Virus record (IMG/VR): IMGVR_UViG_3300033233_000017
Location: 38,727 to 102,726 of that record
DNA length: 64,000 bases
Direction: 5' to 3' (one strand)
Source: a virus
Shown here: positions 31,460-63,469 of the stretch, piece after piece
Numbering within the stretch: the first letter of the stretch is position 1
Layout of the letters: every line of letters begins with the position of its first letter
Notes under the pieces: generated by a model
Database searches by the model: none
The model's input: the letters and a program-made list of their open reading frames with translations, nothing else
Told to the model about the DNA's origin: nothing
Made by a program: the position numbers and the translations under genes

Positions 31460-31496
31460 GGATCAACCTCCGGCGTATGCGCACATACGCTCTAAG

Positions 31497-38350: not shown

Positions 38351-38899
38351 TTAAACCGCGACGGCTTCCGTCGCGGACCGCTTACGCAGCATCGCCAGAA
38401 CGTCCTTCGAGTTGAAGGTCTGTTTCCCCAAAAGACGCACGAACTCGCGCCGGTCGGTGGCGTCCATGGGGATGTTGCCGCCCTCGGGGTAAAGCTCGAA
38501 GGCCCACCCGTTTTGCAGGACGCAGTTGGCGACCTCGGTGAGCACTTCCTTAACCGTCAGCCCCATCTCCTTGGCGTGCCCTTCCAGCGGCACATGCAGC
38601 GACGGGTCGATCTCGAAGCGAATCACGAAAGCGCCGTCGTGAAAGCCCAGAGCTTTCTCTACCAATCGGACGATCTGCGCGGCCTCGGTGAAGGGCGCAT
38701 CTCCGTTCGCCTTCTGGAGCGCCTCCATGTGCCGGGGTTGCAACATCAGCCCGCCCGTGGCGTATTGCTCCAGGAACCATTCGGCCCAGGTGCGAATCGT
38801 GGTCGCCGGGTCCGACTTCGACTCTGCCGCCAACTTCTGATAGGTTTCCGCCTTCAAAGTCAACAGCGCAGGTACGGAAATGGGTTCTACTTTCGCCAT
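38351..38899 (-). CDS. possible DNA-binding protein with two ribbon-helix-helix-like segments
   Basis: LTLKAETYQKLAAES and IRFEIDPSLHVPLEGHAKEMGLTVKEVL; ATG at 38899 after GAGG. Confidence 0.45.
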   Translation of the reverse strand: MAKVEPISVPALLTLKAETYQKLAAESKSDPATTIRTWAEWFLEQYATGGLMLQPRHMEALQKANGDAPFTEAAQIVRLVEKALGFHDGAFVIRFEIDPSLHVPLEGHAKEMGLTVKEVLTEVANCVLQNGWAFELYPEGGNIPMDATDRREFVRLLGKQTFNSKDVLAMLRKRSATEAVAV

Positions 38900-41283: not shown

Positions 41284-41677
41284 CGTTGTTGTCCTGGTCT
41301 TCGGCCTGCACGTCGATCACGCGCTCCTCGGAAGCTTTCCGCTCCATCTCCTCGATCATGGATTCGAAGGAGCGCCTGCGCGTGTCTCCGTTGACCTGTG
41401 ACTGCATGATGTTGGTAGTCACCGAGACCCCGTTAGGGCCTTTGTCGTAGCCCAGAATCCGGCTCATGATCTCGCGGACTTTATTGTTGTCTGCCTTCAG
41501 CCCGCGTTTCATCGACTCCCAGTATTCGTCGGTCACTTCCGTCGCAATACTCATGAGCTTGCGTTCGACCGTTTTGCGGAAGGCGCGCTTGGTCATGACG
41601 CGAGCGGGACGTCGCGCAGGCGGTTGCGACTCCTGAGTGGTGGCAACTGCCGTGGTGATGTTCGGTTCTTCAGGCAA
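41276..41677 (-). CDS. putative terminase small subunit
   Basis: TTG start after AAGGAG; helical 133-aa protein overlapping the terL start. Confidence 0.5.
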   Translation of the reverse strand: MPEEPNITTAVATTQESQPPARRPARVMTKRAFRKTVERKLMSIATEVTDEYWESMKRGLKADNNKVREIMSRILGYDKGPNGVSVTTNIMQSQVNGDTRRRSFESMIEEMERKASEERVIDVQAEDQDNNDE

Positions 41678-41690
41678 AAGGAACTTCTCC

Positions 41691-43313
41691 TTACTGATTT
41701 GGCATCCCCGCACTGGTCGCATGTGCGGTCGTTCCGTCGAAAATGAAACTCTGCATACTGCACTTGTTGATCGTGGTTCCAACCGTCATGCCGCCAAGCA
41801 CCGTCGTCGGCCATACGAAGGTCTTAGCTGCCGCTCCTTGGCAGAGCACGAAGTCGAGTTGTTGCCCCGCGACCGCATTCACGAGCGTTGAAGAGGTCAC
41901 GTTTGACGTCAACGACATCCAGAACTTCCCGCCCATGGATGCGTAGAACACAGGCGTGGCGCTCGATGCGACGTAAGCCGGATGCGTGCTTGCTCGCGAC
42001 ATCGAGAATGGGTTCGTCGCGCCTGACAACACGGGGTCCTCGACCGTCCATTTAGTCACGCCAAGACCCGTACCGTCCAGATAGTAGAAGTAATCGTCAA
42101 GGTGGGTCGGGGTGTACGTGTCCCGGATCACTGGTCGAACGAACTTCACGTTCCCGATCTTCTCTCCGCCGCCGCTTGCCCTATAAATCACCACCGCTGT
42201 CTTCACCGTGGCGTTAATATTTGGGTTGCTGTTGACGACATGGAGATCCTGGAAGGTCACCACCGGACAGGACTGATACCACCGATCCCAATAGACGGAG
42301 AACATGGAGTTGCTGACCAGCGGGCGGTCGAACAGGATCACTCCCCCCACGCCACTTGTTCCCGTGGACCATGCGCAGTTGCTCATGATCCCGGAGACGG
42401 GCTCGCTATCCGCGTGCAGGTTGCGAATGGCTATGTCCACGGGGGGACTGGTGTTATCGAGATGGAAGAGACTCACGCTGAATCCACACCCAGAGTTGTT
42501 GTAGGTGTGAATTCCATCGAAAAGGATACGCTTCAGGCTCTCCGCTGTAAGGTTTGGCTCGATGTCCACACCGCATTGCGGATCAGCGCCGGTCGTATTC
42601 GAGAAGAAGGAGTCCCGAATCGTCACGTCGATCCCGCTGATGAGCGAGAGCCCCTGCCTGCGGTTGTTGTTCGCGCTCACGCTTTGCAAGACCACCCGGA
42701 GCGGAACCGACGACCCCGTCCCGATGTAGAACCCGTCCCCTCCTGAGTCGTTCGCAGCGACCCCCTCGATCCGGATGTCGCTACCTCCACGAATGGCGAT
42801 GGCGTGATTGGCTGAACCAGAATACTCGGCCTTCGGCATTTGAAAGATCGACCCATAACCGATGATGGTGACGTTCGGCACGTCCGTGATCGCTATCAGG
42901 TTTTGTTGTGCCGTGAATCCCGCTTTCGCCATAAACACAGTCCCCGGATCAATGTGAATCGTAGAGTTTCCAGGGATTGCGGTTGGCCCAATCAAGTAGC
43001 GCACCGTGGGCTTGGGAATGTGCAAGGTTTTCCCGACCGCCGCCGCCAACGCGCTGGCGAACGCCGCGCTGTCGTCCGTCGTGCCGTCTCCGACCATGCC
43101 GTAGCTTCGAGCGTTAGTGTTGATCGCAAGACCGCCATAGGCGTCCGTCGCCGGGATACAGTCGGTCATCGCGATGGCGGAGCAGGCTGGCTTGCCGTTT
43201 AGGTGTTGGGCGCTGATTGGCCCAAACATGCCGACGCCGCTCTGCGCATGGCAGGACAGCGCACAGAGGGAAGTGAAAATGCTTCGCAGGATCTTGTAAC
43301 TTATTCTCGACAT
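41691..43313 (-). CDS. signal-peptide-bearing pectate-lyase-like right-handed beta-helix (tailspike/depolymerase-like)
   Basis: MSRISYKILRSIFTSLCALSCHA signal; YGMVGDGTTDDSAAF, GDGFYIG, NNRRQGLS, GVDIEPN. Confidence 0.75.
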   Translation of the reverse strand: MSRISYKILRSIFTSLCALSCHAQSGVGMFGPISAQHLNGKPACSAIAMTDCIPATDAYGGLAINTNARSYGMVGDGTTDDSAAFASALAAAVGKTLHIPKPTVRYLIGPTAIPGNSTIHIDPGTVFMAKAGFTAQQNLIAITDVPNVTIIGYGSIFQMPKAEYSGSANHAIAIRGGSDIRIEGVAANDSGGDGFYIGTGSSVPLRVVLQSVSANNNRRQGLSLISGIDVTIRDSFFSNTTGADPQCGVDIEPNLTAESLKRILFDGIHTYNNSGCGFSVSLFHLDNTSPPVDIAIRNLHADSEPVSGIMSNCAWSTGTSGVGGVILFDRPLVSNSMFSVYWDRWYQSCPVVTFQDLHVVNSNPNINATVKTAVVIYRASGGGEKIGNVKFVRPVIRDTYTPTHLDDYFYYLDGTGLGVTKWTVEDPVLSGATNPFSMSRASTHPAYVASSATPVFYASMGGKFWMSLTSNVTSSTLVNAVAGQQLDFVLCQGAAAKTFVWPTTVLGGMTVGTTINKCSMQSFIFDGTTAHATSAGMPNQ

Positions 43314-43344
43314 CTCCGTCTCCCATATGCGCACGTACGCGCAG

Positions 43345-43566
43345 TTAGGCTCCCGGTGGTAGCGGTTCGACAACGCCGATACTGGCCCAGAATTTGCGCC
43401 AGTCGTCGTAGATGCGCAGCATCCTCTTGTCCCACTCCAACCGCATCGACGGGTCCATGGTCTCTCGTACAGTCGCGGCGTAGTTAAATGCCGCGACTAC
43501 GATTCCCTCTCCAGGGAGGGAACCCTTGAACTCCACCGCAATCGTCTTTACTACTGGATCGGCCAT
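43345..43566 (-). CDS. hypothetical protein
   Basis: ATG at 43566 after AAGGAG. Confidence 0.5.
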   Translation of the reverse strand: MADPVVKTIAVEFKGSLPGEGIVVAAFNYAATVRETMDPSMRLEWDKRMLRIYDDWRKFWASIGVVEPLPPGA

Positions 43567-43576
43567 GCCGGTCTCC

Positions 43577-44056
43577 TTAGCGCCGTGGATGGCGCGGATG
43601 TAACTCTTCCTCTGGTTCCGGTTCAGGTTCCCGTTCACGGAACGCTGAGATCGGTTTTCTGCTCCGAATCCACTGTCCGGCAAATTGGCTCAATAAGCCC
43701 AAGGCGATTCCGCTCAATAGGTACATCTGCAACTGCGAATTCGACTCCAAGCGCGATAACCGCTGTTCAATCACAATGGCGCTGACCTCGCTGGCGCGAG
43801 TCTCCAGGGAGCGCAGACGCGCCGAATGGTCCGCCAACTTCTCCACAAACGGTTGATGGCCGGAGGGGTCCGTCTCTGTGGGTCCGTAGGGATTAGCGAT
43901 CTGTGCCACCAGCGCTAAGCACAACCCGACCGCCAAAGTGACCAGTGCTGCCATGCGCAATCCAACTAAAGCGTAGGCCAGTATTGGGATGCGACGGATC
44001 ACGTACCAGATCAGTCTCAGCGTCGAATGCATCCAAACTCCATGCAGTTTTTTCAC
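43577..44056 (-). CDS. membrane protein (TM, coiled coil, TM); possible lysis accessory
   Basis: Hydrophobic N-terminal segment, heptad region, C-terminal TM and basic tail; GTG start after AGGAG. Confidence 0.5.
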   Translation of the reverse strand: MKKLHGVWMHSTLRLIWYVIRRIPILAYALVGLRMAALVTLAVGLCLALVAQIANPYGPTETDPSGHQPFVEKLADHSARLRSLETRASEVSAIVIEQRLSRLESNSQLQMYLLSGIALGLLSQFAGQWIRSRKPISAFREREPEPEPEEELHPRHPRR

Positions 44057-44076
44057 GTACGTCTCCTGGGTGAGTA

Positions 44077-47000
44077 TCAGGGTATCGCGGCAATCTGCGT
44101 TTCCCCGGTGGTGATGACGATGCCGTTGACATCGGTGAATTTGAGACGGTAGTACAGAATCCGTTGCGGAAGCGCCGGAATCTTCAGCGTGCATCCCGTT
44201 CCGCAGGACAGTGGGCTCCAAGTTTCGCTAGCCCAGTAAAACGGATTGGTGGTTTGGTCAATCGTCGCGCTATTGGCGATACACGCTTCGGCGCGACTGG
44301 CGCAGGCGAAGGTCGGGGTATACCCGAACTCCGCGTAGACTCCGGTGATAACAGCGGGCAACTGCCCGATCTGAACCGTGTGCGGTTGGAACGTGGAACG
44401 GTTGGTGCTGTCGAACGCGGGCCATCCAGGGTTCTTGAACAGGAACAGCATATTGCGTTCCATCTCCGCGTTCAGATTCAGGCTGTACAGCCAGTTGGCG
44501 TTGGGTAGGCTCTTGGCGGTCCACCCGGACTGCAAACGCGGCCATGTGAAGACTTTCGAGATGGTCCGCGCACGCCGCCCGCTTCGATCCGCGTTCTCCA
44601 CGCCGATCTGGGAGACGTTTGCGAGGTAGGGGCGCGCATCGCCCACGCACAGATCGTTGCGTTCGGTATCTAGAAGCGCCACGCAACTGATATCAGTCAC
44701 ATGCGGAGAACTGACATACAGGGCACCCGGCGTCGAACCCGAGACGCACTCGTTGGCAAGCAGCGCCACGCAGTAGGTGTAGGGCTTAGTGTCGTCGATC
44801 ACCGATCCCGGTCCGCTGATATCAAGCAACGGATGGCGTCCGGAAGCAGCGAAAGTGGGGAACAACTTTCGGTTCATGCCTGCACCCAACACGAGGCGGT
44901 ATACCGTCGTCATTCCCGGAACCAGGGTGGCCGACGTTCCGAAGTTAGTTGGAGAGTCTTCCCCGAACGGGCGCGCATCCAGAGCCCACCGTTTCTCCCG
45001 CTCCGGCGCGGAGAGTTGCGTGATCCCGACATGCGAGAGACTGGCGGTCGTCATGTCGGTCGCAGGCACAGCGAAGGGAGCGTTCGACGACACCGCGTAC
45101 ATCGGGTTGCTGGTGGGAAAGAGATCCGCAGGGGTGCTTCCTTTCCGCACCCGGTAGACCCCGCCCTCCTTCGGATCTGCCGTAAGCGCCCATCCACCGT
45201 TCACCGCTCGCGTCCCGGTGACGGCGCGCGAATCCACGATCACTGTGTTCCCGCTGGTGTTCACGCCATGCGGGTCAGCCGCGTAATTCCAGTACCATTG
45301 GCCGCTGTGGTTCCCGGCGCTGTTGCTGTCGTTCACGTTGGCCGCATCCGGCATCGCCAGTAGATAGTCGCCTGCCAGATGCGTCAACATGGGGTGGTCG
45401 GTCGCGGTTCCGAGTTTGCGCTCCACGGTCCAACTCAGCCCTGCGCGGGCCAGCAGGCGCATAAACTCCCACTGCCCTGCTGTGGAATTGTAAGCCTGGA
45501 AAGTATCTCCGGGCTGTGCGTCCTGGAGGTAGAACGCCGTAGTGGAGTCTCCGCATTTCCCGGAGTTCCGGGTGGTCTCCTGTGCGCTTGGATCTAAATC
45601 GCAGGGCTCGCCATCGACTCCGATGGTGCTGCATTTTCGCAAGTCAGTGGGCCAGTTGTACACATAGGTCAGATTCGAGGGCGGTCCGGGGCATACATCG
45701 CAGCTTGAGCCAATCGTGCAGAGCGCCACGTCGGTGAGCAGTTTGGCCTTGTAGGGTCCGCAACCGGTGTTGGTATTAGCCGCACCAAGCACCCCTCCAC
45801 AGCCAGCGCCCGTGAAATCCTCTCCGCCTCCGCCGACCCAGGTGCCTGCCGAGTTCAGATCGGAGGAATGTGAAGTGCCCCACCGTTTCGGCCACTTCCC
45901 TGTCCAAGTATCCGTGGCCGCAATCACCTGATGTGCCGCGTAATCGTAGACGAACAGCCAGCCTAAACGGTCCTGCGAATTGGCGTAGCTTCCGGCTTGG
46001 CAGGAGAGCAGGAGGTGGCTGGAGTAAGTGCCCCGGCCCACCCCGCAGTTGGTGAAGAAGGCTGGATCGAAGGTCTTGCCGTCGAGCGCGGCGAAGGCGA
46101 TCAACTGCTGCGTCACGTCCACGCCTTCATCGGTGTAAGCGATCAGCGCCGGGTCCGCTCCGGTGGTTCCATCCCAGTTCTGCTGCGAATTTGCTGGATG
46201 TGGCGTGCCGCCGATGTAACTGCCCTTGACTACCCGTACGTGATTCGCGGTGTTCTTGTCCACCGCCAAGCAGTACCACGCGTTCGCGTCCACCGTGCTC
46301 CAGATCGCTGGACCCGCGCCTTGATGCCAGGAGCCGCAATCGGTGAGGTTGTAATTGGCCGTCGACGGAACGCTCATCCGGGAGAGCAATCGGGCTTCCC
46401 CGGTGAGTGCGTTGACCCAGTAGAGCACTCCCGAGATCGCGCAGTGATAGCCGCCGTCAGAGGTCTGGACGCGAGAACAATCCTCCGAGTTCCCCGAGGT
46501 GTCCCAGTAGTAGATCGAGGTTTCCCTCGGAGCGAGACGTATGTAGGTGATGGCGAGGGTGTGCGTAGAACTGGTTTTCTTTCGCACCAGCACCTTGGTC
46601 TGAAGCTTCAGGGTGTACGCGCCATCGGCGGGACCGGATTGCAGGATCAGCGCCGTGGGGTTTACCACCCGCGAGACGCGGTATTGGGTTCCTCCGATCA
46701 GCACTTTGGTCCCGTTGACCCAGGACGGATTAAAATAATTCCCCGACGTGCGGGTCGCCGTAGTGCCGCTGATGGTGACGCTAGTGGAGCGGGTAGCCAG
46801 ATCGTAGTAATCCAGCGTCCGCACCCGCCCGGTCACCGTCCAATCGCCCATCCCTCCGTTGCGCGTGGCTGGAGCCAGCGTGTACGTGGAGTTGGAGGGC
46901 ACCGAAGCCACAGGGACTACCAATTCCACCAACTTCGAACCGCAACCGCCTGTCCTCAGAACGTCCAGGCATATCTCTACCGTGCGGTCGTTTGTGGACG

Positions 47001-47886
47001 CGGTAGCGCAGTTTCCGCTGGTGCAGGCGGACTGCATCTGAATCTCCAGATTGTCGAGACCGTGCGCCGAAGCGCCGGCTCCGGCGAGCGTAGGGTTCTT
47101 GCTAGTCTCGTAGTTCACTTCGAGCCAGTTTTCGCCGCCCGCCTGCCCGCTGCCGGTGTAAGTGGCCGAATTCGCGTCGGAGGTGAGGATGTAGGACGGG
47201 TTATTCCACAGGCCCGGACCGCCCATGTCGGTAGCTGACACCGGAACGACGGGCGTGTACGTGTTCGAGGACTCAGGCGGAGTTGCCGGAATCGCTAACA
47301 GCCCCGTGTTTGGGTCGATGATGCGCTGCGTCGGGACGTTTCCAGCATGTGTCCAGCGCGGCGTGACATCCAGCGTCGGCCACAGTGCCTCTCCGGGGAA
47401 CGCGGCATCTCCGGGGAATGGATCGTTGACCGTGTAGCCTATCGGAACGTTCGTAGTGGTGAACTGCCCCGTGGTGGTGTCCACCCCGCAGGTGATCTGG
47501 AAATAGTGCTGCGTGTTGGCCTGAAGCGCACGACTGTACTTTGCCACACCGTCCGAACTCCACTCTGCCACCCGCTTCCCGACCACCACCATGCGCCGTA
47601 CGCCAGAGTTTACGCTGCTCGTGCGGGCATCGCTATTCGCTCCGGTGAACAGCGCCGCGTTGACGTCATGTATGGGCGCATACGTTCCGCTGAAATCATT
47701 CACCTGCGACACCTTGAGAGTACAGGCGTCGGTGCTTGGCGCGGTGTAGACGATGACGGCTTGCGTAGCTGTCGTTCCGGTCACAGTCAACCCGGTTATC
47801 GCGGCCTGCGCGGTGACCGAGACCGCAAGTAGAGCGGCTTTCCAAATCCAGTACGATGCGTGACTCATGGCGTTATTTTTGCTCAC
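44077..47886 (-). CDS. large secreted Cys-rich beta protein
   Basis: Signal peptide WIWKAALLAVSVTAQA; many paired Cys; the N-domain (GTTATQAVIVYTAP..HDVNAALF.GANSD..YSRALQANTQHYF) recalls secreted proteins of Acidobacteriota (recognised from memory). Confidence 0.6.
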   Translation of the reverse strand: MSKNNAMSHASYWIWKAALLAVSVTAQAAITGLTVTGTTATQAVIVYTAPSTDACTLKVSQVNDFSGTYAPIHDVNAALFTGANSDARTSSVNSGVRRMVVVGKRVAEWSSDGVAKYSRALQANTQHYFQITCGVDTTTGQFTTTNVPIGYTVNDPFPGDAAFPGEALWPTLDVTPRWTHAGNVPTQRIIDPNTGLLAIPATPPESSNTYTPVVPVSATDMGGPGLWNNPSYILTSDANSATYTGSGQAGGENWLEVNYETSKNPTLAGAGASAHGLDNLEIQMQSACTSGNCATASTNDRTVEICLDVLRTGGCGSKLVELVVPVASVPSNSTYTLAPATRNGGMGDWTVTGRVRTLDYYDLATRSTSVTISGTTATRTSGNYFNPSWVNGTKVLIGGTQYRVSRVVNPTALILQSGPADGAYTLKLQTKVLVRKKTSSTHTLAITYIRLAPRETSIYYWDTSGNSEDCSRVQTSDGGYHCAISGVLYWVNALTGEARLLSRMSVPSTANYNLTDCGSWHQGAGPAIWSTVDANAWYCLAVDKNTANHVRVVKGSYIGGTPHPANSQQNWDGTTGADPALIAYTDEGVDVTQQLIAFAALDGKTFDPAFFTNCGVGRGTYSSHLLLSCQAGSYANSQDRLGWLFVYDYAAHQVIAATDTWTGKWPKRWGTSHSSDLNSAGTWVGGGGEDFTGAGCGGVLGAANTNTGCGPYKAKLLTDVALCTIGSSCDVCPGPPSNLTYVYNWPTDLRKCSTIGVDGEPCDLDPSAQETTRNSGKCGDSTTAFYLQDAQPGDTFQAYNSTAGQWEFMRLLARAGLSWTVERKLGTATDHPMLTHLAGDYLLAMPDAANVNDSNSAGNHSGQWYWNYAADPHGVNTSGNTVIVDSRAVTGTRAVNGGWALTADPKEGGVYRVRKGSTPADLFPTSNPMYAVSSNAPFAVPATDMTTASLSHVGITQLSAPEREKRWALDARPFGEDSPTNFGTSATLVPGMTTVYRLVLGAGMNRKLFPTFAASGRHPLLDISGPGSVIDDTKPYTYCVALLANECVSGSTPGALYVSSPHVTDISCVALLDTERNDLCVGDARPYLANVSQIGVENADRSGRRARTISKVFTWPRLQSGWTAKSLPNANWLYSLNLNAEMERNMLFLFKNPGWPAFDSTNRSTFQPHTVQIGQLPAVITGVYAEFGYTPTFACASRAEACIANSATIDQTTNPFYWASETWSPLSCGTGCTLKIPALPQRILYYRLKFTDVNGIVITTGETQIAAIP

Positions 47887-50846
47887 TGTAACCTCGCCCC
47901 ACTCAGGTTGAATCCACTGATCCGCGCCGCAGGCTGCGGGGGCAACGCCGCGAGAGCGATCCCGATGGTCTGCGGAGAATTAACTACGCCTGTTGTTGTG
48001 GAGGCAACCGATACGGTATCCGTGTAGTTTCCCGCCGTGAGGCCGGTGCAGTCTGCCGTGGCGGTCAGTGAGGTGGCCGCTGAACCAGACGTCGGACTGA
48101 TCGTCAGCCACGCCGCATTTTTGGTCACCGTGAAGTTGTCCAGTGCCCCGCCCGTAGAGGACAGGGAAACACTCTGCGAGGCGGTCGCGCCGCTCCCCGC
48201 TTGGCAGGAAAAGCTCAGGATCGGAGGCGAGAGATTCAGCGAGATCGACAGCGGGGTAACTCCCGAATTATCGAACTCCAGAATCCCCGCGTTGGTCGCG
48301 GTCAGTGTTGCAGATCCGGTGGTGTCAATGGTGACTGTTCCGCCCGCGATAGTCACCCCATAGCTCGCATTTGGGGCCAATCCTGCAATGTAGTGGTGCG
48401 GGGTCCCGGTGTAGGTGTACGTCATCGGGAGAACGGGCGTCTCTGCTTTGGCAAAGGCCACCACACCGAGCCCTGCGACCTGGGCCGCGTCGATATTCGA
48501 CGTCGTGGACGGAGTTACCGCAGCGACCAGTTCTGGGGTTGCCGACGTGTCGATCACCGCCAGATAGTTATCCGCCGTGTGGTCAAAAGCGTTCGGTCGC
48601 ACCTGCACCTGATACAAGGGCAGGTTTGTAGTATTGCACAAGGAATCGTAATTCGACCCGATCTTCTGCGCAATCGCCGCCAAGTGGTTAACTGGCAACA
48701 CCGTGGTCAGAGCACCCTTGAACACGCCTCCGTCAGCGATGTCCAAGCGATGCAGCCCGGTTGCTGGAGGTGTCACCTCGGTAGGGGTTTTTCCGAATTG
48801 CCACATCATCTGGCGATAGTCGTCAGCGTAATAAGTGTTCGTGATGTCATGGACGACGATCACCTTCGGACGCAGGAACATCACCTGCCGAGTCCATTTA
48901 TTTACGTGTACCTTGCTGTCCACTGTGCTTGCTATATAGGACTTCTCCAGGGACACGGCTCGGTAATAAGCATATGCGGAAACTGACTCTTCTGCTCGAT
49001 CTATCTTAGTCGGATGCGTAGTCACATCTGCAAAGTGACCAGGATCACGAGTCGCGCCGTATCCTTGTACCTTCAACCCTCCAGGACGATCCGCGAAAAA
49101 TACAGATTCCTTGGAATTTGTGTAGTTTAGCCTCTCGTTGTGCAGTGAGCTGTGACAACCGCTACCAATGACTGAGTAATTTCTCGCGGACTCACCAAGC
49201 CCATGCACGAGTATATGCGTGTCCCCCCTCTGCACGGTGATGGAGCCGCCATCGAATTGCGTCTTTCCGTTCGCTCCTTGCCCAATCATCGGCCCGCTCC
49301 AGAACGTCACGTAAGTAGCGTCCGAGTCCCAACTTGATCGTGCCACTGCGTAGTTCCCGCCAAGCGTACCGGTCCCACCAAAAAGACGAGAGGCCAACGG
49401 ACCAGTGGTATAGGCGGACGTGGAAGCATCGGGGTTGTAGTAAAGAAAATCCATCGCCACTTCTGGCTTTGATCCCGTATAGGGGTCATCCCATATAGGT
49501 GTTTTCCCTGAAGTGGCCCAAGCCAGCAACCCGGTTTTCGCGGAGTCGTAAAGATTCGCCAGTTTGGACGACTTGGGGTGGCTCAACCTTTCTGCCACGT
49601 AACGGGCGAAAACGAGGTTCCCAAGATAGAAAAATTCAGGTTCGTCGTACCCCCTTGTCACATACTGAAAATCCGGGAATGCAATCCCGTTTGGAGTGAT
49701 CGACCGAAGGTACGCTTCGACCGCATCCCCTATGGGATCAAGCCCGGAGGTTCTCCAGTCCACGCCCCGCAAAAAGAAGGCGTATTGAGATTGCATCAGC
49801 GCGTAAAGTGCATTCGATCCATATGCGTTCCAAGCCTCTCCGCTTCCTCCGGCCACATTCCAGCAGTTTCGATAATCCCGTAGTTTGTTCACGCCAAACA
49901 CGCGGGCATTGATTACTCCGAGCCACTCCGAAGACCTGGAATTCTCATCTGTCGTGGAAAGGTATGTGCTCACGAACGCGTTGAGTTCTCCCGCAAAGTA
50001 ATTGGAGTCTGGGTGCTGGTGATTCGATATAGCCAGATTCCAATGTCGGATATCTTCATCCAGCCACCGATTTAGAACCGCTATCATTGCCGTCCGTTCG
50101 TCCGCCGTCCACTCGTCATAGAACCAGTCATACAAGATCGACATGGACTTAGGATAAAAGCGTTCCGCGAAACAGTCGTCGTTCTGGATGTTGAGGTTAT
50201 AATTAACGCAGTCAGCGTTATAGGTGGGCGCTTCAGCGGCGGTGATGTATCCCACTGACTGGCTATAAGCCGCAACGGTCCATGTACCATTGATCGACGT
50301 ACACCCCCTCGCCCCGGTGACCACCATCGTGTCCCCAACAATAACGTCTGCGTATTGGGTCCAGAGCTTCATGACGTTGCCCGTCGTGCCCCAGTTCTTC
50401 GCGCCATTGGACGGCACGGCGGCATACACATTCCCCCTCACCGTCACCCAGACAGGGGGATCGTCCATAGCTAGACGGATGAATTTAGCCTTCTCGAAAT
50501 ACGTGTGAGCGGTCGCAGGATCGGTCGGATGCAAGACCTGATAGCAGGTCGCCAGTTGCCTCACGCTCTTTTCGAACCATCCCCCCGCATAATCCGGGAT
50601 AATTGGGCTCGAATTGTCTGCGCCGGAGCCCGGAACCATTGTCCCGCTGGTGTCACCAACGGGGTTCGGGAACCGCACAGCTTTACCCAAGTTCGCATCG
50701 CACGCCGCCTTGAGCGCCACCCAATCTGCGGTGTTCGAAGTGGCTTTCGCGCGCAACGCCGCGAGTTGCGTCGAATCTATCAAAAACTGCGGATGCGCGG
50801 CCCACAGGGGAAGCGCAAGGATGACGAAGCAGATCAGTTTTCGCAT
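47883..50846 (-). CDS. secreted heparinase II/III- or alginate-lyase-like protein with a C-terminal BACON/Ig-like domain
   Basis: Signal MRKLICFVILALPLWA; HPQFL, YDWFYD, SNYF, E..NAYG, ARSSWD.DAT, WTRQVMFLRP..IVVHD; C-terminal WLTISPTSG..GNYTDTVSV..NSPQTI. Confidence 0.7.
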   Translation of the reverse strand: MRKLICFVILALPLWAAHPQFLIDSTQLAALRAKATSNTADWVALKAACDANLGKAVRFPNPVGDTSGTMVPGSGADNSSPIIPDYAGGWFEKSVRQLATCYQVLHPTDPATAHTYFEKAKFIRLAMDDPPVWVTVRGNVYAAVPSNGAKNWGTTGNVMKLWTQYADVIVGDTMVVTGARGCTSINGTWTVAAYSQSVGYITAAEAPTYNADCVNYNLNIQNDDCFAERFYPKSMSILYDWFYDEWTADERTAMIAVLNRWLDEDIRHWNLAISNHQHPDSNYFAGELNAFVSTYLSTTDENSRSSEWLGVINARVFGVNKLRDYRNCWNVAGGSGEAWNAYGSNALYALMQSQYAFFLRGVDWRTSGLDPIGDAVEAYLRSITPNGIAFPDFQYVTRGYDEPEFFYLGNLVFARYVAERLSHPKSSKLANLYDSAKTGLLAWATSGKTPIWDDPYTGSKPEVAMDFLYYNPDASTSAYTTGPLASRLFGGTGTLGGNYAVARSSWDSDATYVTFWSGPMIGQGANGKTQFDGGSITVQRGDTHILVHGLGESARNYSVIGSGCHSSLHNERLNYTNSKESVFFADRPGGLKVQGYGATRDPGHFADVTTHPTKIDRAEESVSAYAYYRAVSLEKSYIASTVDSKVHVNKWTRQVMFLRPKVIVVHDITNTYYADDYRQMMWQFGKTPTEVTPPATGLHRLDIADGGVFKGALTTVLPVNHLAAIAQKIGSNYDSLCNTTNLPLYQVQVRPNAFDHTADNYLAVIDTSATPELVAAVTPSTTSNIDAAQVAGLGVVAFAKAETPVLPMTYTYTGTPHHYIAGLAPNASYGVTIAGGTVTIDTTGSATLTATNAGILEFDNSGVTPLSISLNLSPPILSFSCQAGSGATASQSVSLSSTGGALDNFTVTKNAAWLTISPTSGSAATSLTATADCTGLTAGNYTDTVSVASTTTGVVNSPQTIGIALAALPPQPAARISGFNLSGARLQ

Positions 50847-50849
50847 GGT

Positions 50850-53800
50850 CTATCTATCAGCCTCCGCATACAGGAAGGAGATGTGCAGGTTCTTCGCGAC
50901 CGCTTCCAGGGTCCGCGTCACAGCCAGAAGGTACATATTCACATCCGCCTTTGGGCGCGTTGTGAGCCCTGAGCAGACCTGAGAGCCATTGATCCAGAAG
51001 GTTGTCGTTCCCGCCGTATCGTTGTTGATGATCTCAAACTGCGTAGGGACCGCCGCAACCGCCACCCCGCTATCTGCTCCCGCTTGCGCAGCAGGCGCGG
51101 AAGTCTTCGCGGCGATGCACTGCCAGTTCGTATCGACTCCCGCTGTGTAGCGGAAACCCATGTAATCCTGTCCTGTTGGTAGATCGTAGGCGGTCTGAGC
51201 CGCGTTGGACCCGGTCGTGAACCCGATAAACGTGCGAGCCGTCCCTGTAAGCTCTACGGGGTTCGCAAGCGCTTGCCCTCTGAGATTTCGACCAGTTCGA
51301 TAGAGGGCCGCTGTCACCAGTACCGATGCAGAATCCGTAGTAGCTGCGCTTAGGATGTTCGCAGTTGGCCCGTTCGTGGCGTCTACAGCGACCGCCGATA
51401 CGGTCCCGGTAGCTGGGCTGCCTGTCCCGCTCCCAACCTGCGTCCAGGTAGTGCCAGACCCGAAGTACATAATATAGGACCATCGCGCGGTTAGCAGTCG
51501 CGGAATCCCGGAGCCAGAACCTCCGCTATCCGCCGTACACGTCACAGTTGAGTCCTCGCCGATGGTGCTAACATGCTGGCCCGCGCCGCAGGTCTTCGCC
51601 TGCACCTTCCCGCCGGCGCTCACGGTCGGATTAGGGAGGTCGGTGGAGGCAATCGCGCCACCTGGAGCGTAGTAGTCTGTCCCGGCTGATGCCGCAGCGG
51701 TCGTGTTCGCGGCGGTGCGTTTGACGATGCCATTCGCGCCGGGGTCAATCAGCCCCTCGATATCCGTCTTGGCAGTCGCGGTGACCTTTTTGAGAACTCC
51801 CGCTTCGTAGCAGAGCGCCGCATCGTAGCCCGTGTCGGGCGCAGCGGGACAGGTTCCCTGAATGAGTTGAAAATTCAAAGGGCCACCTAGCCCCGCTTCT
51901 ATGGAGGTGGCCTTGAGTTTGTGTGTCCCGAGGTCTACATCCGTCGTTGCTCCCGTGTACGGAACCCCTGTAGCTGCTGGCAGGTAACTGGCGGAGATCA
52001 GGCCGTCCGTTTCCAACGGCGCGTAACCCGAGGGCTGGCCTTTGTTGACCGTCGCCTCCGCGCCGATCTGCGAGGGGGTGAGCGCATCGGATTGCGCTGT
52101 GGCATGTGAGGCGGCGTGGGCGGTAGGAGTGCGAGGGTTGGTCATGCGCGAGTCATCACCAGCGGCGACCGTCCCCGCGATGGTGCCGACGTTGAGCAGT
52201 GCCGCGCCTCCGAGCCCCGTTACTTTGGAGTTCGCAATTGCCGTAAGCCAGGAAGGGTTACTATAACTTCCCCCACTACGCAAGATGGTGGCGTCCACAG
52301 GCTCCGCTCCAATCGCAGCCGGGGTGAGCGGATCACTCCCGCCCGTCGCGTGCTGTGGGGCGTGCAGGCCCACGGGAGCCGCAATCGTGTCCGATCCATC
52401 CGCGTTCTTGGTAATGGTGACGTTGGTGCCTGCGATCAGCGTCTTGGTCGATCCGCTGACGTATGTGCGCGTACATGGGTCCACCCAGTTGTCGGCGCTC
52501 ACGCTGCATTGCGCGACCGGGATGGTATCGAACGGATATCCGGTTACGGAACCGTCTGTGGCGATATTCTCCAGCGTCCCGGCGCTGGTCACCCCGCTGC
52601 CCAAGCCCGCCGTTAGCCCTCCTGTGAGCGTCAAGTAGAAGTACACCGTACCGGTTCCGGCAGGACTCGTGGCGGTGCCCACCTGGGTGCTCATGGTGGC
52701 TGTGTGTCCAAAGCGGTACGATCCGCTGGAGATCGAAAGCACGTCGGTGCCGGTGTTTACGGTGGCAGTGAAGTCGGTGCTTCCTCCGCCCGCTCCCGCT
52801 ACGGTGATATTGACCTGATCGTTTCCAGCGTCATCGACAATGGTGCCTGCCGAAAAGTTCAGACGCTTGCGGGTTCCGATGAGCGTTCCGGCGAGCGCGA
52901 TTTCAACTTTCTGCGTGGTGGTGTTGGCCGCAACCGTCAGCGTTCTATTCGCGCTGAGATCGCCACCCCCTGTCAATCCGGTTCCGGCGATGATCTGGCG
53001 CGTCGTGCCCACTTTCCCGTTGAACAGGCTCCAGTCCGTGGAACTGAGTGCGCCGCGCGTCGTCGCGCTGGCGTTAGGCAGGTTGAAGGTGTGCGTGTTC
53101 ACCGAGGAGACGATGTTGAAATCCGCGCCCGTGGTTCCGGTAGCGAAACCTTGCGTCGGGCCGGTCTGCCCTCCTAATGTCGAGATACCGCCGCTCGCTC
53201 CCGTGAAGTCAATATTGATGCGGTCATTCGTAGGATCGTCGGACACCGACGCGCCCGCGCCGAAGTTCACCTGAGAACGCGTGCCCATGAGTGTTCCGTT
53301 CAGCAGCACGTTGACTTTCTGGCGCGTCGTGTTCGTCACCACACTCAAAGTTCGGTCCAGGCTGAGATCGCCTCCGCCTGTGAGTGTAGAATCGGTGAAG
53401 ATCGACCGCGTGGCCGGGACTTTGCTGTTGAACGTTGTCCAGTCCGTGGAAGTCAGCAGACCGCGCGCATCTGCCGCCGCACTCGGGAAATTAAACGTAT
53501 GCAGTGCTCCGGAAGACACGATACTGGGAGCCTGTCCTGTGGTGCCAAGGGAAAACGTCTGCGTAGCCGTCGTCAGTCCGTTGATACTGGAGACTCCTCC
53601 ACCGACCGTTCCGGAGCCGCTGAGACTTCCGACGTAGAAGTCCTTGGTCGCGGAATAATTGATGACCGGAACGCCCGTGACGGTGAACTTCACGTAGGCG
53701 TGGTAACCGAACCCGGAGCCAACGCATGAGGCCGAATTGTTATCGACGTAGGCGGTGCTTCCGAAATCCGTCCAAGGTCCGGCGCTCGATTCCGACCAGG

Positions 53801-54017
53801 ACATCTGAGCGGTCCAGGAGCCTGTACCCACGGCGCAGAACGAGTGATAGTTGTTCTGCCGGAGAAGCGCACTGCGGTTGTCGATCAGCGTCGTTCCCAC
53901 GTTGTACAGGCGCGTGACGCGCAACGGCTGTGGCACGGTTTGACCGTTCGCGGTGGTGGTTAAGAGCAGGCCCACGATCAGGGCGCAGATCCACGAGAGG
54001 ATACGCTGCATCGACAA
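50850..54017 (-). CDS. signal-peptide-bearing tail-fibre-like protein (ATG at 54011 is the likelier start)
   Basis: MQRILSWICALIVGLLLTTTANG; two ~135-aa repeats (RG.L.STDW..FN.K, LTGGGDLS..RTL); HAxxHA knots; AAGDDSR; VPYTGATTDVDLG. Confidence 0.7.
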   Translation of the reverse strand: MSMQRILSWICALIVGLLLTTTANGQTVPQPLRVTRLYNVGTTLIDNRSALLRQNNYHSFCAVGTGSWTAQMSWSESSAGPWTDFGSTAYVDNNSASCVGSGFGYHAYVKFTVTGVPVINYSATKDFYVGSLSGSGTVGGGVSSINGLTTATQTFSLGTTGQAPSIVSSGALHTFNFPSAAADARGLLTSTDWTTFNSKVPATRSIFTDSTLTGGGDLSLDRTLSVVTNTTRQKVNVLLNGTLMGTRSQVNFGAGASVSDDPTNDRINIDFTGASGGISTLGGQTGPTQGFATGTTGADFNIVSSVNTHTFNLPNASATTRGALSSTDWSLFNGKVGTTRQIIAGTGLTGGGDLSANRTLTVAANTTTQKVEIALAGTLIGTRKRLNFSAGTIVDDAGNDQVNITVAGAGGGSTDFTATVNTGTDVLSISSGSYRFGHTATMSTQVGTATSPAGTGTVYFYLTLTGGLTAGLGSGVTSAGTLENIATDGSVTGYPFDTIPVAQCSVSADNWVDPCTRTYVSGSTKTLIAGTNVTITKNADGSDTIAAPVGLHAPQHATGGSDPLTPAAIGAEPVDATILRSGGSYSNPSWLTAIANSKVTGLGGAALLNVGTIAGTVAAGDDSRMTNPRTPTAHAASHATAQSDALTPSQIGAEATVNKGQPSGYAPLETDGLISASYLPAATGVPYTGATTDVDLGTHKLKATSIEAGLGGPLNFQLIQGTCPAAPDTGYDAALCYEAGVLKKVTATAKTDIEGLIDPGANGIVKRTAANTTAAASAGTDYYAPGGAIASTDLPNPTVSAGGKVQAKTCGAGQHVSTIGEDSTVTCTADSGGSGSGIPRLLTARWSYIMYFGSGTTWTQVGSGTGSPATGTVSAVAVDATNGPTANILSAATTDSASVLVTAALYRTGRNLRGQALANPVELTGTARTFIGFTTGSNAAQTAYDLPTGQDYMGFRYTAGVDTNWQCIAAKTSAPAAQAGADSGVAVAAVPTQFEIINNDTAGTTTFWINGSQVCSGLTTRPKADVNMYLLAVTRTLEAVAKNLHISFLYAEADR

Positions 54018-54133
54018 AGACCTCCAGGACGTCCCGCGTCCTGGTTCAATTTTAAGGTCTTATCCCAATGCTTACAATGATTTATGTGATTAACTTAATG
54101 TAATACTTTAAGTTTGCGCGCATACGAATCGGA

Positions 54134-55132
54134 TCACGTATTCCATGTATTCCAAACCCATCGCTTCCAATTATGTTTCGCGGAGGGAGGGTTCGCGCCT
54201 GCCGCACCGCCGCTCTGAGCGCCGCCCGATCCCAAGTAGGAGTAGGTTGCCACTTGCCCCACGAAACTCGTGATCGCCGCACCTCCGTTTTGCGCTCCAC
54301 CGCTGGCGTAAACTGCGTGCGTGACGTTGCGAGTAGCGGAGCCTCCGCTTTGCGCTCCGCCCGATCCGGACACCGTTTTGGTCGCCGCGAGAGGAGCGCT
54401 CCCGCCTGCCTGGGCTCCGCCCGTGCCGGCGTACGTAAAGATCTGGGAGTTGGTGACCAATTGCGTCGTTGCGCTCCCGCCCGCCTGGGCTCCGCCCGAC
54501 GCGATGCAGGCGAATAAATGCAGCACCATCGCCGCTGCCGCGCCCGCTGCAACCGCGCCTCCGGAGCCGGAGTAGGTATAGGTGTTGAGAGCGGGGCTGT
54601 ACGTGATGACAATTGAGACTTCATCATCGTAGATGCTAACCGCATTCGAGGTGCTGCTGCTACTCGTTGCCAGAGCGTTGGCAAGGCGCAACTTGACCGA
54701 TGTATTGCTGGCCTGCATTGCGGAGGGGACCGACTGGTCCGCAAGCGCGGACACATCAACCCACCCGCTGTCGGTTGCGGTAACGGTGCGGCCTGCCCAC
54801 AGGGAGGCTTGCTGCGTTCCTCCAGAATCTCGCAGCGTATAGGGTCCGATACTGGAAGAGGCTCCGCCAGTGTACTCCATGCAGCGGGTAGAGGCCGCGT
54901 TGACTCGGATCGCGGTTACGGTTGCTCCCGCTGGGACCCCAAGCGCTTCCCAGGTTCCGGTCCACTCCCAATAATTGGAGTTGCTCTTGGTTTTTCCGAG
55001 AATGCGCGACTTCAGGGAGCCGAGCGGATTCCCGGCAGCCCCATTCCAAGCCAGGGTAGACGCTGCTCCAGCGGAACCGCTGAAACTCTCGGCCCCCGCC
55101 AGGAACGAGAATGTCTTGGTGATAGTAGCCAC
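54134..55132 (-). CDS. virion-associated protein with six [ST]GGA..[AG]G.A repeats
   Basis: Beta-rich N-domain, repeats such as SGGAQAGGSA, Trp-rich C-terminus. Confidence 0.55.
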   Translation of the reverse strand: MATITKTFSFLAGAESFSGSAGAASTLAWNGAAGNPLGSLKSRILGKTKSNSNYWEWTGTWEALGVPAGATVTAIRVNAASTRCMEYTGGASSSIGPYTLRDSGGTQQASLWAGRTVTATDSGWVDVSALADQSVPSAMQASNTSVKLRLANALATSSSSTSNAVSIYDDEVSIVITYSPALNTYTYSGSGGAVAAGAAAAMVLHLFACIASGGAQAGGSATTQLVTNSQIFTYAGTGGAQAGGSAPLAATKTVSGSGGAQSGGSATRNVTHAVYASGGAQNGGAAITSFVGQVATYSYLGSGGAQSGGAAGANPPSAKHNWKRWVWNTWNT

Positions 55133-55136
55133 TGCC

Positions 55137-55526
55137 TCAACTTTGCGTGAACTGCGGCGTCACTTTGATCTGATCTCCATTCTGCTGCACGTTGTATGGG
55201 CCGTTGCTGAACCGTTCTGCGAACATCAACTTGCCGTCCGTGTCGCGAGTCACGTAATAACCGTACACGTTCCCGAGCGCCCCGGTGAACCCAAACGTTT
55301 GCTGTGCATAGGCCGCAGAGGTTGGCGTTCCTGGAGTGATGGTCCATGACCCTCCCGTCAGAGTCTTGGTCGCGTACCCATTCCCGGTCGCTTCCGTGAG
55401 ATTCGCCTCGGTGCTTGCCTTGACGGGTGTGTAATCGTTTGTGAAGAGTCGCAAGGTCATGGAGCCCGCAAAGAACCCCGTGAGTATCTGGACTTCGCCC
55501 TGGTTACATAATACGAGGGACATCAC
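55137..55526 (-). CDS. small beta-sandwich virion/fibre protein
   Basis: LRLFTNDYTP..TEA.GNGYA..VYGYYVT..AERF, a family common in phage fibre clusters. Confidence 0.65.
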   Translation of the reverse strand: MMSLVLCNQGEVQILTGFFAGSMTLRLFTNDYTPVKASTEANLTEATGNGYATKTLTGGSWTITPGTPTSAAYAQQTFGFTGALGNVYGYYVTRDTDGKLMFAERFSNGPYNVQQNGDQIKVTPQFTQS

Positions 55527-55532
55527 TTACTC

Positions 55533-56033
55533 CTATGGCAGAGTTGAAGTTTGGAGATAAACATTCACTGACCCTGCGGTTAAGGCGGAGGCGTTTGCCC
55601 CGGTCGTCTTAATCTCGACAACCAGAGCTATCGTCGCGTCCGTGCGTGCGGCGCGGTTTAGGCCACCGTTAAGGTACGGTAGCGCGGTGATGGCTTGATG
55701 CACATCATAATCGGTTGCTACGGAAGTAGAGGCTCCCGAAGTGCCAACGCTCGCGGTCACTGCGTTGATCGCCGTCCCCGCAAAGGGGACGGTATGTTCG
55801 ACGACGACGCCGTGCATCACCGTCTTAGCCGGAAGCGTCACGAGAGCCACTTGCTGAGTAGTGGCGTTCGCCTTCGCATCCCCGGAGACCCCGTTCACGG
55901 TCCAATTACTACCGCTCATCGAGATCGTGTACTTCGCCCACGTCGCTACAGACGGACCTCCATAGACGCCAAATCCTGTCTGCCCCTGGCAAGAGAGAGA
56001 ACACGCGAGGAAGACCAGGAGGATCTTTCGCAT
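55533..56033 (-). CDS. secreted small beta-sandwich protein (decoration/cement-like)
   Basis: Signal MRKILLVFLACSLSCQG; LVTLPAKTV..VVV..TVPF..SVGT..LTAGSVNVY. Confidence 0.6.
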   Translation of the reverse strand: MRKILLVFLACSLSCQGQTGFGVYGGPSVATWAKYTISMSGSNWTVNGVSGDAKANATTQQVALVTLPAKTVMHGVVVEHTVPFAGTAINAVTASVGTSGASTSVATDYDVHQAITALPYLNGGLNRAARTDATIALVVEIKTTGANASALTAGSVNVYLQTSTLP

Positions 56034-56043
56034 GGAGGTCACT

Positions 56044-56415
56044 CTATCCCCTGGCCGCGATAAATCCAGTGACAGCCGCGCCATCCGAAGCCACCCAGGA
56101 GACGCCATTTGGACAGAACCTTCCGCCCTCTTCCCGAGGGAAGACGCGCAGATGATCGGAATTGGCGGCGATGCTCACGGTCGGAACCACTTCGCGAGAG
56201 GGGCTCTGCTTGTCGGTAATCGTCACAGTGACCGTCGCGGCGGATTTGTTGGATAGGTGGATCAGCGTCAGGAACACATCGTTGGTGAATACATCTTCGG
56301 CAGATGCCGGAACCAACTTCGGGTTGATATAGAGCGGCGCTCCGAACTCTGCGGAGCCGTTTTTTACGGTAACAGCCACGAGATCCTCCGAGGCGCAGAT
56401 GCGCCCTTCCTGCAC
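56044..56415 (-). CDS. small jelly-roll-like virion protein; first gene after the late promoter
   Basis: IHLSNKSAATVTVTITD..G..CPNGVSWVAS. Confidence 0.55.
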   Translation of the reverse strand: MQEGRICASEDLVAVTVKNGSAEFGAPLYINPKLVPASAEDVFTNDVFLTLIHLSNKSAATVTVTITDKQSPSREVVPTVSIAANSDHLRVFPREEGGRFCPNGVSWVASDGAAVTGFIAARG

Positions 56416-56504
56416 TTATTCTACGCCGAAAGACCCTGTTTCCAATCCGAAATAGGCGAATAGTTGAAGTGATAGTTCAGGAGCGCGACATATGCGCGCG
56501 TACA

Positions 56505-56573: not shown

Positions 56574-56602
56574 AGTATACCACTTGAAATTAGCTACGTC
56601 AA
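56574..56602 (-). promoter_or_regulatory. near-consensus sigma70 promoter heading the late region
   Basis: TTGACG (56602-56597), 17-nt spacer with an extended -10 TG, TATACT (56579-56574). Confidence 0.75.
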
Positions 56603-63031: not shown

Positions 63032-63469
63032 CGCACCGCTCCTGCATCAGTGATTGCCATAACGCTGAAGACGATCATCACGAAACACACCACAATCACC
63101 GCGATCACCGCCATTACCCAACCGATGTCTTCCGGATATTCGTCCATCATCACTTATTACATACTGCCCGGATCAGCGCCGATAAGATAATCGCCGTTCC
63201 CAGGAAGTACAATGCCCCCAAGATAGATCCTAATTGGGATTGCTGGAAGTAAATCACCATAGTTCCCTCCAAGTATGTGTCCGACGTGTCACCCTGTCAA
63301 GAGTTATTTAGGCTCTTTTTGTTGCTTTTCGTCCCAGAGCGAAAATTGCTCCAAACTTACTCCCGACTTACGATGCTCCTGGTAACGTATGCGCGCGTAC
63401 CCGTGGCGCTCCAGCAGGCGCAGCATTGTCAACCGGAGTAACTCAGCGTTAGAGATAGTGAGTTCCGTC

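Follow-up and report, generated by a model that had tools for sequence, protein, structure and literature searches.

Putative export signals on fibre and glycan-degrading proteins encoded beside the terminase of a probable Acidobacteriota phage

Tailed-phage particles are taught as purely cytoplasmic assemblies, and the phage depolymerases known to us are either spikes on the virion or soluble proteins without a leader. The IMG/VR record IMGVR_UViG_3300033233_000017 raises the question of why a phage should place fibre-like and polysaccharide-lyase-like genes with apparent export signals next to its large terminase gene. The record is a single, linear viral sequence of 102,726 bp, and its right-hand 64 kb (positions 38,727 to 102,726) constitute the stretch analysed here, referred to as the window; coordinates are those of the window unless another genome is named. 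Between 56415 and 41691, on the minus strand, lies a block of ten genes, g1 to g10, five of which (g2, g5, g6, g7 and g10) encode proteins with predicted Sec-type leaders. The account that we favour, placing about half of our confidence in it, is that these proteins form an exported, periplasm-folded kit that binds or degrades host polysaccharide and acts mainly free after lysis, with the fibre g5 possibly docking. Sec export is the best-supported step of this account, and we consider it well supported because the leaders are conserved, the starts are supported, the cysteines occur in even numbers and the relatives in cells are secreted proteins. Export is still an inference, as are the formation of disulfides, the polymer attacked, and action in free form rather than after docking.

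Export leaders and cysteines

All five signal-peptide N-termini reported by a first-pass annotation of the window are present, with starts at 56033, 54011, 50846, 47886 and 43313. The 166-amino-acid (aa) g2 (55533..56033, minus strand, as for all genes of the block) begins at ATG 56033, 10 nt past the g1 stop, with MRKILLVFLACSLSCQG and a predicted cut before QTG, while the 1053-aa g5 (50850..54011) begins at ATG 54011 with MQRILSWICALIVGLLLTTTANG and a predicted cut before QTV. The leader of the 987-aa g6 (47883..50846; ATG 50846) reads MRKLICFVILALPLWA and would be cut before AHP; that of the 1269-aa g7 (44077..47886; GTG 47886) ends in WKAALLAVSVTAQA, with a predicted cut before AIT; and that of the 540-aa g10 (41691..43313; ATG 43313) ends in ILRSIFTSLCALSCHA, with a predicted cut before QSG. 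Ribosome-binding sites precede the leader-containing starts of g5 (GGAGG, 9 nt before), g10 (GGGAG, 6 nt before) and g7 (GAGG). The leaders were called with a home-made rule that combines n-, h- and c-regions with small residues at -3 and -1; a Sec leader was expected to have a positively charged n-region, 7-15 uncharged, hydrophobic residues in the h-region, and small side chains at both -3 and -1. This rule flagged g2, g5, g6 and g7 and none of 20 others from the operon that serve as head, tail or ejection proteins, and g10, when read from ATG 43313, displayed the same n/h/c layout as the other leaders. On reading the five sequences, twin-arginine (Tat) signals were rejected, as no RR motif was present, and so were lipoprotein signals, as no convincing lipobox was found.

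Conservation of the leaders is stronger evidence than this rule, and the expectation that homologues retain them was borne out in the g5, g6, g7 and g10 families, viral contigs included for g5 and g7. In the g7 family (31 loci from bacteria and five viral contigs), nearly all full-length proteins have a leader when read from the first start, in many cases ahead of A|AI(T/S), and full-length relatives of g6 carry a leader followed by the conserved mature end HPQ(L/F)L(L/I)D. The family defined by the ~110-aa N-domain of g5 has a leader in all five members (this phage, two further phages and two metagenome proteins), with Gln invariant at the predicted +1 position, and a leader or lipobox was present in 31 of 43 relatives of g10. 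For g2, no homologues were found in the searches or in any fetched locus, and its leader is the least supported of the five because it has no known relatives and is read from its own sequence. The decoration-like sandwich named in the first-pass annotation would be g2, an assignment that is at most tentative.

That these hydrophobic N-termini might serve no purpose as cleavable signals, being instead relics of captured genes, uncleaved anchors of the signal-arrest-release (SAR) type or products of mis-set starts, strikes us as very improbable. Some room is left for it: the home-made rule is not specific, as several antisense open reading frames (ORFs) elsewhere were also flagged; the h-region of g10 is weakly hydrophobic (the weakest of the five); and g2 offers no homologues for a comparison of conservation. 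However, the leaders are retained between phage and bacterial proteins that share 25-50% identity, each with a conserved mature end, and the ribosome-binding sites stand at the leader-containing starts. The composition of the block is like that of the rest of the genome, which argues that its genes are not recent acquisitions. Captured enzymes can, moreover, lose leaders that they do not need; the retention observed here is informative because GH32 enzymes that phages captured from hosts are reported to be leaderless through loss (PMC4595243).

Gln is a very frequent first residue of the predicted mature proteins (QTG, QTV, QSG, QAP, QTT, QTC), as seen in g2, g5 and g10, in two related phage genomes introduced below (G311 and G312), and in gp12, gp13, gp16 and gp17 of the cultured phage Tunturi_1. 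A pyroglutamate 'Q-rule' for signal peptidase I substrates has been described for Bacteroidetes, and by analogy it may extend to Acidobacteriota.

The mature parts of g2, g5, g6, g7 and g10 contain 0, 10, 10, 28 and 8 cysteines, respectively, all even numbers and with many short-range pairs. Several pairs are invariant in an alignment of 21 members of the g7 family, and the three pairs quoted in the first-pass annotation all fall within g5. The paired cysteines that it had described are therefore present as many close pairs, but enrichment relative to the rest of the phage held only in part: the pooled density was about twofold higher in leader-bearing proteins (1.43%) than in other operon proteins (0.68%), whereas a per-protein test was not significant (p = 0.25) because the large terminase (TerL) and some small proteins are also cysteine-rich. 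Cysteine enrichment was dropped as a main argument for this reason. Among the homologues of g5, more cysteines occur in those with leaders (p = 0.006).

Folds and relatives of the leader-bearing proteins

A heparinase- or alginate-lyase-like enzyme had been proposed among the block genes, and structure comparison confirmed this fold for g6. The structure model of g6 (11 relatives in the alignment, pLDDT 61, middling confidence) consists of an alpha/alpha toroid followed by an antiparallel beta-sandwich; its best Foldseek match was heparinase II (2fuq; E = 1e-15, TM 0.60 by target), all 50 of the 50 best PDB matches were polysaccharide lyases (PL21, PL15, PL17, PL12, PL33, PL8), and the Atlas structure matches were Hepar_II_III clusters (TM 0.58-0.65). 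Judging from the model, g6 is a predicted lyase with the heparinase II/alginate-lyase fold. Its catalytic part matched no Pfam or NCBIfam model (Hepar_II_III_C/N, Alginate_lyase) and a PDB sequence search with it was empty, so that g6 is to be regarded as a fold-level relative and not as a member of a curated family, because no family model matches that part. In the family alignment, N282 is invariant and Y283 and Y342 are nearly so. At its C-terminus (residues 878-955), g6 carries a BACON_2 domain (PF19190; E = 1.9e-9, 37.7 bits against a gathering cut-off of 25), of a type that recurs in many Bryobacterales proteins; the closest full-length relatives have no BACON-type C-terminal domain, and g6 has gained one.

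Relatives of g6 at 32-36% identity, found on soil and peat metagenome contigs, lie within exopolysaccharide (EPS) biosynthesis clusters, with Wzy_C, GT2 and several methyltransferase genes as Pfam-confirmed neighbours. On one 82-kb cellular contig, three leader-bearing proteins are encoded side by side, one a beta-helix resembling pectate lyase, one containing a g5 module and one a lyase like g6, and the trio adjoins GT2, acyltransferase_3 and GH2 genes. The g6 profile found no relative in viral contigs and only three weak matches in 201 Acidobacteriota genomes; the catalytic part was absent from five Bryobacterales genomes, in which only the BACON-like domain was matched, and neither g6 nor g7 gave a tblastn match in 50,697 phage records. 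The first-pass annotation had reasoned that homologues confined to non-phage loci would indicate captured host genes. Such confinement does not apply to g5, g7 and g10, and nearly describes g6, for which no viral relative was found.

Some phages are known to export proteins by which receptors are blocked or destroyed (T5 Llp, Cor), and one could imagine that the block proteins act likewise on the infected cell before lysis. The enzymes would cut nascent polysaccharide in the periplasm and the fibre would bind the envelope or be displayed on it, masking or stripping the receptor so that neither superinfecting phages nor progeny adhere to the infected cell or its debris. The cellular relatives of g6 fit this idea, being cluster-encoded enzymes of EPS pathways, as does the architecture of g5, which is that of the cell-surface MAT fibres discussed below; a further parallel is WceF, a tailspike-like hydrolase that is exported and presumably works during periplasmic transfer (PMC7949094). 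We nevertheless regard it as rather unlikely. The block proteins are probably made late, because their genes adjoin the terminase gene and share its strand, whereas exclusion is usually a function of early or lysogenic genes, and making four very large proteins would be costly for that purpose. The record yielded no tyrosine integrase, which CheckV rates as 100% complete and in which no terminal repeat was seen; a temperate, moron-type reading of the block was rejected on the same ground. The phage is probably lytic and its host probably an Acidobacteriota bacterium, the host being assigned from the taxonomy of relatives and from composition only.

The second enzyme candidate, g7, is a probable carbohydrate-active propeller. 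Its structure model (1199 residues, 21 relatives, pLDDT 65, middling confidence) is all-beta, with a CBM32/35-like jelly roll (Z ~10 over ~125 aa) and a propeller that aligns with the oligogalacturonate lyase 3c5m (Z 10.1 over 295 aa). Foldseek returned weak propeller matches only, there was no sequence-family match, and both a PDB sequence search with the g7 profile and an Atlas search were empty. The g7 family is chromosomal in metagenome-assembled genomes of Bryobacterales, Solibacteraceae and Acidobacteriaceae, and also in some Saccharibacteria, Doudnabacteria and Verrucomicrobiia, in surroundings that look cellular (e.g., ExbD/SecD-like and asparagine synthase genes) and frequently behind a gene for a second leader-bearing protein. 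When g7 and TerL were each used singly to scan viral contigs, no match resulted. In both g6 and g7 the predicted catalytic body begins right after the leader, as in their cellular relatives, which leaves no room for a virion-docking domain.

Homology likewise upheld the earlier description of a tailspike-like beta-helix, which is g10. Although its scores against the Beta_helix and Pect-lyase_RHGA_epim models fell just below the cut-offs (25.6 bits against 27, and 20.3 bits against 25.9), homologues at 32-51% identity carry PF13229 and PF12708, g10 matches the tail spike family phrog_2234 (E = 1e-7), and its best PDB sequence match is the crAss001 tail fibre gp22 (E = 1e-7). We thus predict that g10 is a right-handed beta-helix of the pectate-lyase type, GH28-like, followed by a C-terminal domain of ~90 aa. 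Most of its nearest relatives are secreted by Methylibium, Dyadobacter, Sphingobacterium and Paenibacillus, with a minority that are leaderless and have phage-fibre-type N-termini. The simplest reading of g6, g7 and g10 is that they are predicted secreted enzymes like those that bacteria use on their own exopolysaccharide.

Fibre motifs were claimed as well, and they are substantiated in g5, which shares ~80% identity across 31 aa with Gordonia phage minor tail proteins and matches the tail protein family phrog_1197. It also weakly matches the tail collar fibre 9d93 in the PDB. More than 250 database relatives share single modules with g5, some of them with Peptidase_S74 or Phage_fiber_2; leaders were present in 23 of the 120 relatives listed, and one of the modules has 76% identity to a metagenome protein that carries a leader. 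Behind its leader, g5 is a predicted mosaic phage-type fibre, and it is the only gene of the block in which such fibre modules were found. The first-pass annotation had offered two alternatives, appendages attached to the virion or a secreted kit that digests polysaccharide; the kit suits g6, g7 and g10, and the appendage is supported for g5 only.

Related phages, virion attachment and operon context

Leader-bearing, cysteine-rich blocks were found in seven other viral records (G006-G010, G311 and G312; three complete) and in the cultured phage Tunturi_1. The five IMG/VR records G006-G010, two of which are complete with terminal repeats, all contain relatives of g7 together with further leader-bearing, cysteine-rich giants. 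The g7 relative of G010 is encoded immediately upstream of the portal gene. In the complete phage G006, a leader-starting ORF at 63045 and the start of the g7-like ORF (position 65) overlap by 21 residues at ~95% identity, so that the former appears to continue through the terminal repeat into the latter; if the two were joined, the g7-type protein would be ~1480 aa long and its leader would be followed by an additional N-terminal domain. Two phages more closely related to this one came from a search with the g5 N-domain. One, useful for comparative work on this genome, is G311 (IMGVR_UViG_3300027908_000002; 99 kb, 100% complete), which shares 44% identity in TerL, 44% in portal, 58% in the major capsid protein (MCP) and 32% in the tail-type protein p1457, and the other is G312, a 35.5-kb fragment (TerL 42%, portal 34%, MCP 43%). 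In both, a leader-bearing g5-type fibre (1548 and 840 aa, with 22 and 20 cysteines) occupies the tail-fibre slot directly behind a p221-like tail gene, and in G311 it precedes a p1457-like nozzle gene. Beside its terminase, G311 also has a divergent cluster of four leader-bearing proteins, one with a Beta_helix match. Neither G311 nor G312 contains g6 or g7; the cargo thus varies among otherwise syntenic relatives.

Such variation is what host-range determinants would show, and it is one of several observations in favour of true virion appendages, in which the leader-bearing proteins (g5 certainly, perhaps also the enzymes) would be exported, folded oxidatively in the periplasm and joined to finished tails either at lysis, as the compartments mix, or shortly before it at the membrane. 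We regard this as possible though doubtful. The g5 family has the build expected of it, namely a leader, a conserved ~110-aa N-domain kept together with the leader in G311, G312 and the metagenome proteins P0013 and P0037, and a variable distal fibre. In this window, however, g5 lies upstream of the terminase and away from the tail genes, and the MAT fibres of Bdellovibrio share its architecture and yet are cell-surface fibres (PMC10769870). Phage-fibre motifs and modules are present in the leader-bearing proteins, including a KINxNF-type fibre N-terminal motif after the leader of G009_763. No phage-specific N-terminal domain was found in g6 or g7, and none was identified in g10. A common N-terminal docking domain for all leader-bearing proteins was sought by comparison, and none was found. 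The large tail proteins p1457 and p1076 are conserved in the relatives and have no leaders; PDB sequence searches were empty for p1457 and gave only chance-level matches for p1076 (E ~0.07). P22 heads that have no tailspikes and T4 particles that have no fibres can be completed in vitro, which makes attachment after lysis chemically plausible. No leader-bearing tail fibre or spike of a tailed phage, and no such route of assembly, was described in the literature searched, whose coverage was incomplete.

Evidence from a cultured phage points in the same direction as the g5 family. In Tunturi_1, gp12, gp13, gp14, gp16 and gp17 have textbook leaders and 2-32 cysteines, while TerL, portal, MCP and gp11 have no leaders; gp14 is annotated as a tail spike and gp17 as a virion structural protein, in both cases by computation only. 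The paper on Tunturi_1 and Tunturi_2 does not mention leaders and reports no virion proteomics (PMC11924767). One might tentatively extend the attachment idea to a wide set of Acidobacteriota phages, Tunturi_1 and Tunturi_2 included, whose host-recognition layer on the virion (the g5-type fibre and perhaps depolymerases) would be built outside the cytoplasm. It is possible, though in our estimate doubtful, that the components of that layer are Sec-exported, pyroglutamyl-ended and equipped with periplasmic disulfides, and that they dock on leaderless tails at lysis.

According to the account of a mainly free, exported kit, which we prefer, the leaders would direct the block proteins to the periplasm through the host Sec pathway and would be cut there, three of the five mature ends beginning with Gln, and the paired cysteines would be oxidised in the same compartment. 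The proteins would accumulate during late infection and be freed at lysis. Outside, the enzymes would act mainly in soluble form, cutting the slime or capsule of the burst cell and its neighbours, and progeny could then escape and reach the receptor. Some trimming of nascent polymer in the periplasm may precede lysis, and the fibre g5 may dock on tails after the compartments mix.

Several points weigh against this account. Export to the periplasm would not by itself reach the exterior of a diderm cell, and the whole record contains no match to PF00959 (Phage_lysozyme), PF01510 (Amidase_2) or PF01464 (SLT) that would indicate an endolysin or lysis cassette. The leader calls come from a home-made rule and from reading the sequences. 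In the phage Milano, virion disulfides form without export (PMC10811340). The predicted fibre g5 bears the hallmarks of a virion fibre, with its conserved N-domain, variable distal part, fibre motifs and tail-fibre slot in G311 and G312. Over its last ~90 aa, g10 shares 50% identity with the C-terminus of a protein of 1070 aa from phage G006 that bears a leader, and the same domain occurs in G009_763 and G007_422; it is common only to other leader-bearing phage proteins, and in G009 it matches a tail-fibre PHROG. The positions of such genes elsewhere also fit virion components, as G008 has four leader-bearing genes in a row at the end of its structural operon, the terminal fibre position, and the complete G009, confirmed as a tailed phage by TerL, portal and MCP, has five embedded between its capsid and tail genes.

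In the window, the block heads a single long minus-strand gene array that runs from ~56.4 kb down to 4.8 kb. The array contains, from upstream to downstream, the leader block, a small-terminase-like ORF (41276-41782), TerL (39031..41283, minus strand; directly downstream of the block in the same operon, its identity confirmed), the portal gene (35440-37326), a scaffold-like gene, the MCP gene (32059-33135), tail-type genes (p381, p214, p221, p1457 and p1076) and giants, namely three almost cysteine-free proteins of 816, 726 and 3115 aa. The block is likely co-transcribed with the packaging genes, because it shares their strand and the small-terminase-like ORF begins within the end of g10. The earlier placement of the block between a late promoter and the terminase was correct as to the terminase; the promoter, a TG-extended sigma-70-like match (TTGACG-17-TATACT; 56574..56602, minus strand) upstream of the block, is a consensus match only, and promoter-like sites in the region are no more frequent than expected from shuffled sequence. 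TerL contains 20 cysteines, including the CxxC-type pairs CDNSNC..CPTC and CCAC..CPHC, which resemble zinc-ribbon inserts; its orthologues in G311 and G312 are also cysteine-rich, with 19 and 25. A 14-bp pseudo-palindrome, GTAYGYGCRCRTAY, occurs at 15 sites, against a chance expectation of 0.46 matches on both strands. Four of the sites lie upstream of the starts of g1 (56490-56503), g5 (54112-54125), g10 (43325-43338) and p381 (31475-31488), within 25 nt of the start for g10 and p381 and 75-100 nt upstream for g1 and g5, and the sites may mark regulated starts that divide the long operon into units.

Among the leaderless genes of the block, the 129-aa g3 (55137..55526) is related to proteins of cyanomyovirus structural regions: it matches phrog_10467 (E = 7e-15) and, by tblastn, Synechococcus phages at 36% identity over 91% of its length, one match being annotated 'tail fiber rope protein'. 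The 332-aa g4 (54134..55132) carries about six GSGGAQxGGSA-type repeats in its C-terminal half (54134-54700), separated by short beta-like stretches, and had neither a family match nor a tblastn match in the 50,697 phage records. In the gap between g4 and g5, there is a 9-bp GC-rich hairpin (54024-54044) whose 3' arm extends into the ribosome-binding site GGAGG of g5. It could serve as a weak terminator or in the control of g5 translation; a promoter-like match (TTGTAA-17-TAAAAT; 54077-54049) lies just upstream. The 123-aa g1 (56044..56415) and the 73-aa g9 (43345..43566; AAGGAG ribosome-binding site) matched no family in the family-model searches, and no relatives of g1-g4 or g9 were found in any fetched locus. 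Wedged between g7 and g9, g8 (43577..44056; GTG start with AGGAG 6 nt before) encodes a membrane protein of 159 aa in which a coiled coil separates two hydrophobic segments at the N-terminus from one at the C-terminus; it matched no family in the same searches and is possibly lysis-related or an envelope anchor.

Comparison with known systems

A module of fibres and predicted glycan-cutting enzymes with functional-looking export signals occurs in at least nine phage genomes (this one, G006-G010, G311, G312 and Tunturi_1). Were the proteins free, periplasm-matured enzymes, they would represent a distinct strategy for phages of slime-rich soil bacteria, and this would explain the recruitment of disulfide-dependent host enzymes; were they to dock, particle assembly would include an extracytoplasmic step of a kind not described for tailed phages. 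The point also matters for annotation, as such genes are named tail spike or virion protein by homology alone, and it bears on the search for stable, secretion-competent polysaccharide-degrading enzymes.

One set of parallels is that of virion-borne depolymerases. The predicted g10 shares its beta-helix fold with tailspikes and fibres such as P22 gp9, the K1F endosialidase, the CBA120 TSPs and crAss001 gp22, and g5 shares with podovirus tailspikes and fibres the fibre repeats, the mosaic exchange of modules, and a conserved N-domain with a variable tip. Known tailspikes, however, have no export signal and are assembled in the cytoplasm, whereas all five block proteins carry leaders; g6 and g7 have no N-terminal particle-binding domain, and the nearest relatives of g10 are mostly secreted bacterial proteins. 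Soluble, non-virion enzymes, such as the GH32 levan enzymes of Bacillus phages and free forms of depolymerases, are likewise host-derived glycan-cutting enzymes of a lytic phage that are released at lysis and open the matrix, but the Bacillus phage GH32 enzymes are reported to be without the signal peptide of their cellular relatives (PMC4595243). In the present case, no family has lost the leader, and eight other phage genomes have it too.

AlgL/PslG-type enzymes are encoded in exopolysaccharide biosynthesis clusters, and such cluster-encoded enzymes share with the block proteins the character of exported, glycan-cleaving proteins with a tailspike-like or lyase fold. WceF of Pantoea stewartii, an exported tailspike-like enzyme of solved structure, is encoded in an EPS operon (PMC7949094); it has a Tat signal, whereas the block leaders are of Sec type. 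The phage copies lie instead in an operon of particle genes, and g6 adds a BACON-type C-terminal domain. The MAT fibres of Bdellovibrio bacteriovorus resemble g5 in having a leader, a conserved N-domain and a fibre (PMC10769870), but they are cellular surface fibres of a predator, and the likeness noted is one of architecture.

Phage-encoded proteins that use host export signals are otherwise represented by spanins, SAR endolysins, T4 RI, T5 Llp and Cor; T4 RI is reported to have a cleavable signal peptide (PMC8385771). These are small lysis or exclusion proteins, and none is a fibre or glycan-degrading enzyme of 500-1300 aa. A cultured parallel is provided by Tunturi_1 and Tunturi_2 (PP887698.1 and PP885685.1), whose host Tunturiibacter is a cultured member of the Acidobacteriota and which are distant relatives of this phage (~25% identity in TerL, 24% in portal and 24% in MCP). 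The leader-bearing proteins of Tunturi_1 are not orthologues of g5-g10 and share only short module matches with those of G008 and G009; in these cultured Tunturiibacter phages, the question of where such proteins mature and act is directly testable.

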